64,000 bases of DNA from Tegillarca granosa (GCA_029721355.1 CM056605.1:4342108-4406107), one strand, 5' to 3'; counted from the first letter of the stretch, positions 10,097 to 62,550 are shown. Program-made: numbers and translations. The notes: generated from the letters alone by a model not told the origin.

Positions 10097-10183
10097 TTAA
10101 TCTGTCAATACATTAAGCAACATCAGTTGTAGCTTTAAAAGATTAGATTCTCCAAGAAACATCTCATCACAGCAACTCTGCCT
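10097..10183 (-). CDS. TEP1: Exon 56, candidate terminal exon ending in TAA.
   Basis: Acceptor ttttcttttggattgttag|AGG in phase 0 gives RQSCCDEMFLGESNLLKLQLMLLNVLTD*. Similarity to the human C-terminus (LLGLFRCEGSVSCLEPW...) is weak. No clear polyadenylation signal was seen. Confidence 0.25.
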   Translation of the reverse strand, partial: RQSCCDEMFLGESNLLKLQLMLLNVLTD

Positions 10184-10384
10184 CTAACAATCCAAAAGAA
10201 AATGTTAGGAAAATGTGTGTTACATATGATAAATGACTAAAAGATGGAAAGACAAAATTACACTGGGAAATGTATTTATCTTCTTCCTTGTTAGTTGGGG
10301 ATGTAAAAATTTATTTCTCTTACCTATTTTTTTTTTTATTATTTATACAATGCATATACAATTACAATAAATTGACTTCCTTAC

Positions 10385-10486
10385 CTGTTTCAAGTTGCTG
10401 TCCCAAACTTTAATTGTCTGGTCATGCGACCCTGTAAATATCAAGCTTCCTGTAGACTGTATACATGATACTGGGCCAGCATGTAT
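10385..10486 (-). CDS. TEP1: Exon 55, last WD40 repeat.
   Basis: Acceptor tattgtttcag|ATA, donor CAG|GTAAGG. Peptide IHAGPVSCIQSTGSLIFTGSHDQTIKVWDSNLKQ, compared with human IHSGSVTALHVLPELLVTASKDRDVKLWERPSMQ. Confidence 0.85.
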
Positions 10487-10606
10487 CTGAAACAATAAAC
10501 AAAAATTCACTATGACAATAGTAAAAAGTTGAAGACTAAACACCAATGTTGGATAGGGAATAATAACATCATGTACGCTATAAAGATTGCTTCTTAAGTA
10601 ACAGTT

Positions 10607-10750
10607 ATAGCTGTGAATTGATAGCTGTAACAAAGACCAAAAAGACCAAATATTGATAGCTGTAACAAAGACCAAAAAGACCAAATATTGATAGCTGTAA
10701 CAAAGACCAAAAAGACCAAATATTGATAGCTGTAACAAAGACCAAATGTT
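10607..10750. repeat. Four copies of a 35-bp unit, TATTGATAGCTGTAACAAAGACCAAAAAGACCAAA.
   Basis: Direct tandem repeat in the intron between exons 54 and 55. Confidence 0.8.
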
Positions 10751-11209
10751 TAAATTGATGTATACTTTCACCTTTGTACCATGAATCACACAAACAAATT
10801 GTATAAATGAAAAACTAAATTACAGGCATAAATTAGGCAAATAATAATGACAAATACTGAGATATTTGACATGATTCTATATCAGGACATTAGTAGCTGT
10901 AAATCTGTCAGTTGCTACAAGGTATTTTATATCAATAGCTGAAATAATTCTAGCACTGTCTTTACCATAATATAATTAAGTGTTACCTGTGTAAACCAAA
11001 CCTGAGTAAATACAAAACATGTCTATATTCACTAATTAGTACATATCAAGACTATTTTTTGTTTAATACAACTAGGGGTGGTGGTGTTGGAGGACGAAAT
11101 TCTAAAAGATTCATTGATTTTCCATAAAAACCAACTGGACCCCAGTATAAGAATTTCACCATTTAACTTTGTCAACAGATGAAACCAACTAACCAACAAT
11201 TCAACAGAA

Positions 11210-11700
11210 GTGGAGCCCAAACTATGTCAACAGATGTAACCAACAGTTCCACAGAGGTGAAGCCTTAACACTTCACCATGTCAACAGGTGAAAGCAACAG
11301 TTCAACAAAAGAACCCCAAACATCAGTAGTTAAAAACAACCGTTCTACAGAAGTAAAGCTCTAATATCTTACCATGTCACCAGTTAAAACTAACAGGTCT
11401 ACAGAGGTAAAGCTCCAACATTTTACCATGTCAGCAGTTGAAAACAACAGTTCTAGAGAGATAAAAGCTCCAACATTTTACCATCAGAAGTTAAATCCAA
11501 CAGTTTTACATAGGTAAAGCTCCAATATGTTATCATGTCAGCAGTTGAAAGCAAAGATTCTACAGAGGTAACGCTCCAACATTTTACCATGTCAGCAGTC
11601 TGAAAGCAAGAGTTTAATAGCAGTAGAACTCCAACATTTTACCATGTCAGCAGTTAAAAGCAAGAGTTTAACAGCAGTCAAGTTCCAACATTTACCATTT
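11210..11700. repeat. About 8 tandem copies of a roughly 60-bp unit (TTTTACCATGTCAGCAGTTGAAAACAACAGTTCTACAGAGGTAAAGCTCCAACA), ending 30 bp from the exon 54 donor.
   Basis: Direct repeats are visible. On the minus strand each unit contains CATG|GTAAAATG, a donor-like motif. Confidence 0.8.
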
Positions 11701-11730
11701 TTATAAGTAAAAATAACAAACAAATCATAC

Positions 11731-11931
11731 CTTCCTTGTTAGTTCTAATGTCAAAGCGGTATCAAATTGGGTTATCTGCCCTTTAGAATCAACAGCATAA
11801 CATTTTTTACCACTTCCTGCCACATCCAGTACAAATGTAGGTGTTCTTTTTGGTGGAGGGATGTCTTTGTCAACTACATCAGTAGATACTTTATTTACTT
11901 TGAGGAATTTTGGCTTATTAACCCCCTTACC
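11731..11931 (-). CDS. TEP1: Exon 54, C-terminal region.
   Basis: Acceptor tatttacag|GGT, donor AAG|GTATGA. Peptide GKGVNKPKFLKVNKVSTDVVDKDIPPPKRTPTFVLDVAGSGKKCYAVDSKGQITQFDTALTLELTRK. Its length of 201 nt fits phase 0 to 0. Confidence 0.65.
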
Positions 11932-60019: not shown

Positions 60020-60154
60020 CTTTAGTACAAATTCTGGATCATAAAGGATAACTCTCTCAGCCATAACTGTCAAATTAACACGAGTAAAATCATTAGAATC
60101 TTTGAAGTCTGGTCGACATATCAGTGATCCACTAACAGCATTGATAAAGGCATG
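60020..60154 (-). CDS. TEP1: Exon 4, start of the TROVE region.
   Basis: Acceptor ttttttacag|CAT, donor AAG|GTATGT. Peptide HAFINAVSGSLICRPDFKDSNDFTRVNLTVMAERVILYDPEFVLK, compared with human ...LEPEFILK. Confidence 0.7.
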
Positions 60155-60189
60155 CTGTAAAAAAGACATACATTGTATATATACAAACA

Positions 60190-60300
60190 TGTATACAGTA
60201 TTCATAAAGGCATGCTTTAAACAAAATATATAGATCCACTTACAGCATTAATAAAGGCATGCTGTAAAAAAGACATAAATTATATACATAAAAACATGTA
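60190..60300 (-). repeat. Two extra copies of the exon 4 acceptor region (intron 3' end plus the first roughly 20 nt of the exon), located upstream of the authentic acceptor at 60154.
   Basis: The authentic site (minus strand) is ctttttt(t)acag|CATGCCTTTATCAATGCTGT. The copies are cag|CATGCCTTTATTAATGCTGTAAGTGG, whose acceptor sits at 60274/60273 on the gene (minus) strand, and a more diverged cag|CATGCCTTTATGAATACTG. Confidence 0.7.
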
Positions 60301-61151
60301 TATTGTTTTGTTGTATACATGTTATGATATTTAATGAAATAAACAATATAAGAAGTATTTTCATCAGACATGGTGAGAAAAAACTTTTATCAATGAAATC
60401 ATTTGTAGGGGAAAACTTTAGAAACATTTCATCTTTGGTCAAATTTTCAGTTAATATTTTATGTTGCATAAACTATAACCACGATCACAAACAATTTAAT
60501 TTTAAATTGTTATACAATCTTTTTAAAAAGAACTGTCTATGTTGTAAGTTTATTATTCTGTGTATTTCTGGTCTGATTTTTGTATATGTATATTTACAAT
60601 GAAAGAGATTTTGTTTCTGTAAAGCTTAATTTCAATTTCCTATTATAACACCATAGACATAATGTGCAACATGCCACATGCTTGAATGACAACATACCAT
60701 CCACATTAAAGGAAAGAGTGTAACTACAGTAACTTGAAAATACATCTAGATTTGTGAAGCAATATTACAAATATAAGAAACAGTCATTCCCCAATGTTTT
60801 ATTACCTTTGCCTTATATGAATAGCCTTATTTTTCAAATATATGCTGTTGTTTAAGAGTCTAGCATATTGGCTAATAATGTCACAAATCAACTTGGTAAA
60901 CCCTTAAAGTCTTTCTATTAGCACTAAGTAAACCAGTGAATTCTAAAGGCAAGAAATTCCTCTTTTTTATTATTTATATGTGTTTAGCTATAATTAAACC
61001 CAAAGCAGTAAGACATCTTGGGTAAAAATTCTGACATCTTAAGCAAACAGCCATTATTATGTAGCTATCAGTATGTGATAAAACATTAACTTTTCAGTGA
61101 AAGGTACCAAAGTTGAGAGAAATCTAATAAAGTTAGTAAGTATTATCATAC

Positions 61152-61462
61152 CTTAATACCATTCACATCATGCACTGGAACAATACTTTTAACAAGTGAT
61201 GGATCCTTATCTGGTGAAATAAAATCTGGGATTTTAACATCTACATCTACTGGTATCCCTGATGACAGGTCATAATCTGGTGTCTCAACCTGGTAACATC
61301 TTACTGCAATATCATACTTTGTCTCCATAATCTTTTCTTTTTCTGACTTTTTCTTAGTTACTTTTTTCTTTTCATTTCCACCTTCCTTCATAGTTCCAGT
61401 ATTTGAACCTAACAATGATCTTCCACCTAATCCACTCATTCCACCATATTTTATGGAACTAG
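61152..61462 (-). CDS. TEP1: Exon 3.
   Basis: Acceptor gtctagtttag|CT restores the frame after a roughly 66-nt mini-intron; an assembly frameshift is the alternative explanation. Peptide ...MSGLGGRSLLGSNTGTMKEGGNEKKK...VPVHDVNGIK. Donor AAG|GTATGA. Confidence 0.5.
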
Positions 61463-61527
61463 CTAAACTAGACTGATTCTCAAACTAGATTGTCCAAGAA
61501 GGGAACTGCTTTCTAAACCAACTTTAC

Positions 61528-62007
61528 CAAATGTTGATATACTACTTTCAGGTTTCAAGGAAGTTCCTAAAAGTTTAGACTGTCCAAAAGTTGTATGTGA
61601 TGATGTTTTTGGTGGTTTTAAACTTGAATGGCCCAACGAAGATGTCAAAGTTGGTTTCATCAGTGAACTTTGTAAATTTGTTGACAAGGAGGAACCTTTT
61701 AAATCTGAAGATAGGGGTGACCCGGAGAGTGATGAACCAGAGAGTAAGGGAGCACCTGTTAAGTTACTTTGTAATAAGGTATTCTCATATCCTTTCTTTT
61801 TCTTCTTCTCTTTATCAAATCCATCTCTTTGTTTAGGTATAGATGGTTTATGTTTTCCCAAAGATCCCAATGTTGGTTTGGTAGTCAACAATGAAGACTG
61901 TAGAAGGCTGCTTCCTCCAATTGATGTATCCATGGTAACTCCTCTAGCAGAGGGGAGCTTGGTAGATTTATGGTCTCCTCCAAGAGAACCATGGTCAGTT
62001 TTTAAGC
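61528..62007 (-). CDS. TEP1: Exon 2, the S/L-rich N-terminal repeat region.
   Basis: Acceptor ttattaacag|GC. Long ORF with degenerate SSLL/SSL repeats (LKTDHGSLGG...SSLLQSSLLTTKPTLGS...SSISTF). Proposed donor G|GTAAAG. The 3' boundary is uncertain. Confidence 0.5.
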
Positions 62008-62474
62008 CTGTTAATAAAACATAAAACATTTACAGTATTAAACATTAATTTATAAGTACATGTATTCCATTTTTTCAAAATTACAGATTAGATAAACTGG
62101 TGATTGGTGTCTCATATTTTTTTCTTACATTTCTATCCTGTTTACATGTCAAATTTATCTCTTACAGTCTTTCATTCTATATAAGTAATATAATTAGTAA
62201 TTTTATATAAGTAATATAATTAGCATATGCAGACTACTGAACAACAGAAGTACCTATCATCTTACTTAAGATTAAAAATATATATATGGTTATATATTTG
62301 AGATTTCATACTTAACACTTGGAAAGGAAGGGTATATTAAAAATGGTATTTTTCTATTTGGACAGAAAAAATATGATGAATTATATACCATTTACTATTT
62401 TATGACATGGTCAACTGCTTATTATCAATGTTATAATACACAGGTAATTGTTGAACATTAAATATACTACTTAC

Positions 62475-62550
62475 TTAATGGACTTGCTGTTACTGACCAT
62501 TTTGACAATAAAGAACTCCCAGATAGGAGTTTGTCTCTATCTGTAGACAT
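62475..62550 (-). CDS. TEP1: Exon 1, candidate first coding exon, with ATG at 62548-62550.
   Basis: Peptide MSTDRDKLLSGSSLLSKWSVTASPL. Donor A|GTAAGT, phase 1, joins in frame to exon 2. A pyrimidine-rich acceptor (ttattttaacag) lies just upstream, suggesting a spliced 5'UTR. Confidence 0.4.

Follow-up and report, generated by a model that had tools for sequence, protein, structure and literature searches.

A TEP1-like gene spanning about 60 kb in Tegillarca granosa: predicted exon structure, domain content and donor-bearing minisatellites

A window of 64,000 nucleotides (nt) from Tegillarca granosa (GCA_029721355.1 CM056605.1:4342108-4406107; positions below are counted from its first letter) raises the question of whether it is occupied by a single gene and, if so, what this gene encodes and where it ends. 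A preliminary description, made from the sequence alone, had proposed a 52-kb gene of about 56 exons at positions 10097-62550 that encodes a complete orthologue of TEP1 (telomerase protein component 1, vault-associated). Our analysis supports this identity with high confidence but moves the 3' boundary: the window very probably holds one invertebrate protein-coding gene encoding a TEP1 orthologue of 2768 amino acids (aa). The TEP1-like gene lies on the minus strand, as do all gene features given below; its coding span (2564-62550; 59,987 nt, about 60 kb) covers 94% of the AT-rich window (G+C content about 31%) and formally comprises 56 coding exons with a coding sequence of 8307 nt.

The exon structure was obtained with an exon-chaining dynamic program that used GT-AG sites, kept the reading frame continuous while checking split codons for stops, and drew its scores from codon log-odds and from splice matrices that had been retrained on the window. 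The 56-exon chain was reached at an intermediate intron penalty, and six junctions were then curated against orthologue fragments. The resulting 56 exons and 55 GT-AG introns are stop-free and phase-consistent, with a single terminal stop codon. This independent chaining reproduces both the start (ATG at 62550) and the exon count of the preliminary description, as well as its continuous protein of about 2.7 thousand aa. With no homology bonus, the minus strand reached a chaining score of 412 (50 exons), against 48.5 (5 exons) for the plus strand and values of 7-16 in five block-shuffled copies; the parameters had been trained on the minus strand, which qualifies the comparison of strands, and the margin is very large. 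Thus, the minus-strand exon chain is not produced by chance. The minus strand also contains every open reading frame (ORF) of 110 aa or more in the whole window, and short open stretches resembling genuine protein are scattered along it. The shortest intron has 50 nt, the next 106 nt, and the median length is 615 nt.

Several other solutions were considered and rejected. With penalty 8 and generic splice matrices, the program returned 46 exons, skipping real exons and absorbing a 66-bp repeat as a 610-nt exon. With penalty 6, it returned 64 exons; the extra ones, which had no homology and low scores, included exons of 11-34 nt from a 34-bp donor array, a tRNA-like fragment of a short interspersed nuclear element (SINE) at 45897-45799, and three weak upstream exons at 63425-62931. 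A longer exon 19, reaching 49396 or 49301, came from a spurious high-scoring segment pair (HSP) with Batillaria, whereas Lingula and other sequences join 49809 to 49214 gap-free. Donor 38259 was dropped in favor of 38235 according to the Elysia alignment; the Elysia and Batillaria alignments together fixed this latter donor as well as the exons at 36704 and 36269.

What kind of gene this is can be seen from its relatives. The best ones in the database are all named telomerase protein component 1 and come from Lingula, Elysia, Branchiostoma, sharks, and Octopus. Nearly all named relatives that match the TEP1-specific regions are annotated as TEP1 or TEP1-like, whereas the many bacterial proteins that match DUF4062 and WD40 are not. 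A single HSP with Lingula (P0001, residues 1-807) covers model residues 833-1646 with 56.5% identity over 817 aa, and a single HSP with Elysia TEP1 (P0121, residues 1-1227) covers residues 1565-2756 with 40.8% identity over 1244 aa. Collinear HSPs from Lingula, Elysia, Patella, and other orthologues cross 50 of the 55 junctions. Each of exons 5-6 and 8-56 is matched by at least one orthologue fragment, both ends of exon 7 match P0023, P0244, and Patella P0242, and exon 4 is touched solely by an HSP across its 3' junction. At the start of the TROVE domain the closest named sequences are those of Mytilus coruscus (81% over 54 aa), Patella vulgata (71%), Branchiostoma (67%), and vertebrates (about 47-51%); identity between P0023 and the TROVE region is 75% and 51%. 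Going by these named sequences and by the exon 7 insert described below, the source is probably a mollusc.

The domain content points in the same direction. A Pfam search with the concatenated exon translation, which had been suggested as a check, matched TROVE, DUF4062, NACHT, and WD40 in the order given earlier for human TEP1, and ten peptides quoted in support of that order all occur, in the same succession, on the minus strand between 59620 and 41879. Together with both TEP1-specific propeller profiles and the names of the best relatives, this full architecture bears out the identification as TEP1.

The position of the 3' end is where we depart from the preliminary description. Its terminal exon (10097-10184, ending in RQSCCDEMFLGESNLLKLQLMLLNVLTD and a TAA that closes at 10097) has a phase-compatible AG acceptor and a stop codon in frame, and an alternative short isoform might use this exon. 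As the end of the gene or of its main isoform it is extremely improbable: the 28 residues that it adds (RQSCCDEMFLGESNLLKLQLMLLNVLTD) resemble nothing and have no orthologue HSP, and the last propeller would be left without its final blade. With this exon the Beta-prop_TEP1_C profile (PF25048) is only half matched (profile positions 1-34 of 73, 29.8 bits, under the cut-off of 32), whereas with an exon at 2564-2737 the same short head-to-head test gives positions 1-73 of 73 and 80.8 bits. The last 77 residues of Elysia TEP1, its C-terminus, align at 2836-2606, and the dynamic program always chose 2737-2564 as the terminal exon. We therefore place exon 56, which encodes the last WD blade, at 2564-2737 (stop TAA 2566-2564), about 7.5 kb further downstream, and the earlier terminal exon becomes intronic. 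The intron between exons 55 and 56 has 7647 nt; since PF25048 spans this junction with just four extra residues, no exon is missing from it. An AATAAA/ATTAAA signal is found 101 nt downstream of the stop codon.

The other end of the gene is less certain. Exon 1 (62475-62550), with the ATG at 62550, is the least certain of all exons. Because an AG acceptor is present 15 nt before the ATG with no intervening stop, a 5' untranslated exon or additional coding sequence could be situated upstream; a non-coding 5' exon probably precedes exon 1. Exons 2 (62007-61523) and 3 (61472-61152), together at 61152-62007, encode an N-terminus rich in S, L, T, and G and a conserved block ('...YDL..IPDFISPDKDP..HDVNGIK'). 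This block, in the general form 'YDL...IPxFxxPxKDP...HDVNG[IM]K', precedes TROVE and is common to Patella and other mollusc-like fragments, which also have the low-complexity N-terminus. Hence the S/L-rich N-terminal repeats mentioned in the preliminary description correspond to real low-complexity sequence, shared with mollusc relatives, but residues 1-294 match no Pfam family, TEP1_N included, even at E<=10. TEP1_N is not universal in the family, so its absence leaves TEP1 membership standing.

A more serious complication concerns the intron between these two exons. Intron 2 (61522-61473, 50 nt) is the shortest of the gene and has both the weakest donor and the weakest acceptor among the 55 introns. 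In L001, a genomic Logan contig of 1442 bp (SRR29726840) from a related species, the exon 2-3 region is one uninterrupted ORF of 299 codons (80.7% DNA identity to window positions 62044-61100). Its product, P0241, is 74-79% identical to the window at the protein level and reads through 61523-61472; it begins and stops at intronic positions equal to those of the open stretches in the window. The DNA alignment with L001 contains a single 1-nt gap in the window near 61483, and the adjacent gaps are multiples of three. Since the related species reads through intron 2, the stretch 62007-61152, modelled as exons 2 and 3, is most likely a single exon that carries an indel of 1 nt near 61483, either an assembly error or a genuine change in a low-complexity region. 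Accordingly, the earlier statement that splice sites are canonical and phases consistent at every junction holds formally for all 55, but the junction 61523/61472 is doubtful. The gene therefore probably has 55 coding exons rather than 56.

The same gap could be taken as a sign that the locus is a decaying pseudogene with a frameshifted N-terminal exon, the frame being kept solely by a 50-nt intron whose splice sites are the poorest of the gene. We regard such decay as highly improbable. The remaining 54 introns preserve an open frame of 8.3 kb without a stop, the catalytic and Walker residues are all intact, and the domain profiles are matched end to end; moreover, the indel falls in a poorly conserved low-complexity region, where an assembly error may account for it or a downstream in-frame Met in exon 3 may bypass it. 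The acceptor of exon 4 (60154) and the first 18 nt of the exon are duplicated 107 nt upstream (60244-60261), with GTAAGT after the copy; the peptide 'xFINAVS' from the start of exon 4 is present in a single copy in orthologues.

A second alternative is that the genome contains several TROVE-NACHT-WD40 genes, this one being a lineage-specific, TEP1-like paralogue rather than a one-to-one orthologue of vertebrate TEP1. Several matches are labelled 'TEP1-like', and some genomes are represented by two or more fragments (Branchiostoma by P0034 and P0243), but such multiple fragments look like parts of one long gene. The window protein has the complete architecture specific to TEP1 and matches both of the TEP1-specific propeller profiles, and within the TeTIR family the TROVE+VWA extension marks TEP1 and its orthologues (bioRxiv 10.64898/2026.09.21.753143). 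We thus consider a paralogue unlikely and, judging by sequence likeness, on which the choice between orthology and lineage-specific paralogy rests, treat the gene as a probable TEP1 orthologue of the ordinary kind.

Some points weigh against this interpretation as a whole. Every junction is a prediction from sequence and homology, and the donors used among the 49 copies at exon 21 and the 10 copies at exon 25, described below, were assigned solely by frame and homology. The TEP1 references are database fragments, the longest of 1779 aa, and orthologue or paralogue status was judged from sequence likeness. For exon 1 and the true start no support was found among the orthologues, just a weak low-complexity resemblance to P0244. 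Finally, there is the apparent 1-nt frameshift, which leaves the N-terminal 187 aa in frame solely via the doubtful 50-nt intron.

The N-terminal module of the protein consists of TROVE and a von Willebrand factor A (vWA)-like domain. TROVE (aa 295-795; 53475-60154) matches PF05731 with E=8.8e-99 and 332 bits over profile positions 21-442 of 442. It is encoded by exons 4-8 (60154-60020, 59620-59459, 58785-58689, 57982-57654, 57202-57072) and 9-13 (56556-56399, 56082-55973, 55115-55025, 54446-54257, 53574-53394). Exon 7 contains an RG-rich, RGG-box-like tract (57759-57896), read from the sequence, which is flanked by Lys-rich (poly-Lys) and acidic Ser/Asp-rich tracts and forms an insertion within a TROVE loop. 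The site and composition of this insert are as in Patella vulgata P0242, and a shorter version occurs in P0023 and P0244. A second RG-rich tract, SRGRGRGGRGRGRGRGGAG, also read from the sequence, lies in a TROVE loop encoded by exon 12 (54257-54446). It is not seen in the orthologue P0023; the exon itself (190 nt) is required to keep the frame. The vWA-like domain DUF5920 (aa 823-999; 49895-52767; PF19334, E=2.8e-10, 40.6 bits with a cut-off of 27) corresponds to exons 14-18 (52767-52615, 52122-52039, 51932-51790, 50647-50576, 49973-49809), each matched by 6-8 orthologue fragments. By analogy with the vertebrate protein, this module would bind small structured RNAs, that is, vault RNA.

A combined TROVE and vWA-like RNA-binding module is also known from Ro60 and bacterial Rsr, and structures of bacterial TROVE proteins (PDB 9l5y, 9kop) match the window protein weakly (E=7e-7). 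Ro60, with a length of about 540 aa, belongs to a stand-alone type of about 500-600 aa that has no TIR-like, NACHT, or WD40 domains, whereas the TROVE domain in the window is fused in frame to all three. The latter is also much nearer to TEP1 fragments (up to 75% identity) than to Ro60. Ro60 has the metal-ion-dependent adhesion site (MIDAS) motif, whereas the MIDAS-like DxSxS position of the window protein reads DVGPS and is not conserved among TEP1 fragments.

The next domain is DUF4062, also known as TIR-like or TeTIR (aa 1029-1243; 45964-49213; PF13271, E=5.8e-17), encoded by exons 19-22 (49214-49038, 48614-48372, 48002-47889, 46075-45955). The structure of the human TEP1 TIR-like domain (PDB 11gz_A) matches residues 1029-1243 with E=3.8e-65 and 48% identity; the PDB search returned this domain and the bacterial TROVE proteins, and no full-length TEP1. 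Interest in TEP1 has been raised by 2026 preprints that describe DUF4062 as a TIR-like NADase, active in human TEP1 inside vaults, with E1008 as the catalytic residue and C959, F902, R914, R942, and R976 also needed (bioRxiv 10.64898/2026.05.01.722283; 10.64898/2026.09.21.753143). All of these have identical counterparts here: the putative catalytic Glu1141 (48454-48452), Cys1092 (48601-48599), F1035, R1047, Arg1075 of the RWG loop (49075-49073; human R942-W-G), and R1109. Human R954, replaced by Lys, is the sole differing residue of those compared. The domain may thus hydrolyse NAD(P)+ via Glu1141, as residue conservation suggests. Because the key NADase residues are identical, the whole protein can be tentatively described as an NAD(P)+-hydrolysing STAND protein with a small-RNA-binding TROVE/vWA part. 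The conserved residues also fit the reported conservation of this activity across animals, and the protein may be used as a comparison sequence.

DUF4062 is followed by the NACHT NTPase domain (aa 1294-1456; 41933-45303; E=4e-7, 30.4 bits with a cut-off of 26.7), in a region that also matches NPHP3_N (E=7.6e-9) and AAA_16. Exons 23-26 (45444-45262, 44264-44089, 43722-43575, 42055-41879) contain the Walker A motif GKPGTGKS at aa 1297 (Lys at 45276-45274) and the Walker B-like motif VLFIDGID at aa 1388 (Asp at 43646-43644). Downstream, at 35164-41251, are a winged-helix HTH_NWD1 domain (aa 1515-1629; PF25469, E=6.7e-7, 29.7 bits with a cut-off of 27) and an APAF1-type helical domain (aa 1665-1770; APAF1_C helical, PF17908, E=3.2e-8, 34 bits with a cut-off of 22.8). 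They are encoded by exons 27-30 (41251-41159, 40782-40650, 40015-39838, 39222-39113) and 31-34 (38323-38235, 36704-36590, 36269-36164, 35326-35164). Going by the vertebrate protein, the P-loop module with the winged-helix and helical domains would work as a nucleotide switch of the STAND type and as a unit for oligomerisation.

A similar arrangement, with DUF4062/TeTIR directly before a NACHT-type NTPase and C-terminal repeats, is found in NWD1, NWD2, and NPHP3 and in bacterial DUF4062 STAND proteins (Swarozyc, 'Evangelion'). Bacterial DUF4062 STAND proteins serve anti-phage defence, and many bacterial DUF4062-NACHT proteins are 30-43% identical to the window protein. Both these bacterial proteins and NWD1, NWD2, and NPHP3 differ from it by having neither the TROVE+vWA extension nor the TEP1-specific propellers.

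The C-terminal part is formed by WD40 repeats. Blades 1-20 are encoded by exons 35-55 (10385-32982; Pfam WD40 E=6e-119, 14 scoring stretches), namely exons 35-40 (32982-32887, 32204-32080, 31694-31545, 30892-30787, 30472-30353, 29745-29647), 41-46 (29014-28867, 28568-28462, 23787-23636, 23112-23004, 22304-22179, 21608-21501), 47-51 (21000-20853, 20246-20095, 19650-19439, 18703-18637, 16099-15978), and 52-55 (15302-15144, 12551-12437, 11931-11731, 10486-10385). Direct reading gives 21 WD-type blades, close to the earlier count of about 20, and they probably form three seven-bladed propellers. The Beta-prop_TEP1_2nd profile PF25047 is matched with E=1e-73 (248 bits with a cut-off of 89), and over the long segment PF25048 is matched with E=4e-47 (158 bits with a cut-off of 32). 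If the vertebrate protein is a guide, these blades would act as a sensor or docking platform, presumably within the MVP vault shell. Thus, RNA binding, NADase activity, and vault residence are attributed to this protein as predictions.

Comparison with TEP1 of vertebrates and invertebrates shows the same domain order, from TROVE and the vWA-like DUF5920 through DUF4062/TeTIR and NACHT to the winged helix, the helical domain, and about 21 WD40 blades. The window protein matches the Pfam propeller families that are specific to TEP1, retains the catalytic Glu of the NADase domain as well as its substrate residues, and with 2768 aa is similar in size to human TEP1 (about 2.6 thousand aa). Differences from vertebrate TEP1 are the low-complexity N-terminus in place of a TEP1_N repeat match, the two RG-rich tracts with the Lys-rich and acidic tracts inserted in TROVE loops, and, relative to human TEP1, the Lys at R954. 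The gene is an ordinary, conserved animal gene and a further member of the known TEP1 family. The gene structure, the domain content, and the conserved catalytic and nucleotide-binding residues are shown by this analysis, and the value of the locus is mainly in annotation: the exons of an invertebrate TEP1 gene, probably molluscan, have been mapped almost in full and curated, with the 3' end corrected and one probable frameshift flagged. The RG-rich TROVE inserts and the donor-bearing minisatellites described next are small curiosities and not discoveries.

Two of the minisatellites, detected by TRF, overlap exon-intron junctions. The first is a 34-bp array of about 52 units (46150-47912, minus strand) that takes up nearly all of the 1813-nt intron 21. 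Each unit copies ~20 nt from the 3' end of exon 21 together with the ~11 nt that open the intron, so that the array creates 48 extra GGTAAGT donors. They score as high as the authentic donor or higher (mean 5.6 nats against 5.1; the gene-wide mean is 2.9). Read-through from exon 21 meets an immediate stop (G*), and therefore only the first donor is expected to be productive.

The second case is formed by two consecutive arrays, 66 bp x8 and then 167 bp x3.4, that run from the end of exon 25 into intron 25 (42588-43613, minus strand). The 66-bp units are 99% identical, and the arrays carry the 3' end of exon 25 with its donor, giving nine extra copies of TACCACAG followed by GTACG at the splice boundary. 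All nine extra donors (CAG/GTACGT) outscore the first one (CAG/GTACAT). The first seven extra copies keep the frame without a stop, and each would insert a unit of 22 aa directly behind the Walker B region. Six orthologue HSPs span the exon 25/26 junction without such an insert, and on these grounds the first donor, at 43575, is favoured.

It is conceivable that these two junction minisatellites are functional or mechanistically informative arrays of 5' splice sites, and we consider this very unlikely. If it were so, they could adjust the splicing of TEP1 or the retention of its transcript by acting as sinks or decoys for U1 snRNP, and the exon 25 array could yield isoforms with 22-aa insertions beside the NACHT Walker B region. 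By a rough estimate, the chance that two among about 13 arrays hit donor junctions is of the order of 0.1.

Beyond these cases, tandem repeats are unusually abundant in the introns of this gene. The 4.7-kb intron 42 contains a 40-bp satellite of about 102 copies (23818-27849, 87% matches) that ends about 30 nt before the acceptor of exon 43 and explains a local jump in G+C content (0.38) and in AT skew (0.35). Further intronic minisatellites are found at 35712-35979 (59 bp x4.6), 12794-13965 (25 bp x46), 11323-11698 (54 bp x7), 10617-10746 (35 bp x3.7), 8611-9883 (159 bp x8), and 3534-4856 (311 bp x4.3). Intron 22 contains an Rfam tRNA match on the plus strand (45808-45879; 31.5 bits with a gathering score of 29, E=0.012); ARAGORN found no tRNA, and the match is probably a remnant of a tRNA-derived SINE. 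Three further intronic ORF fragments had no Pfam match. The last intron carries, on the minus strand, what remains of the C-terminal dimerisation region of a hAT transposase (7883-8047; PF05699, 20.3 bits with a cut-off of 21.4, E=5e-4).

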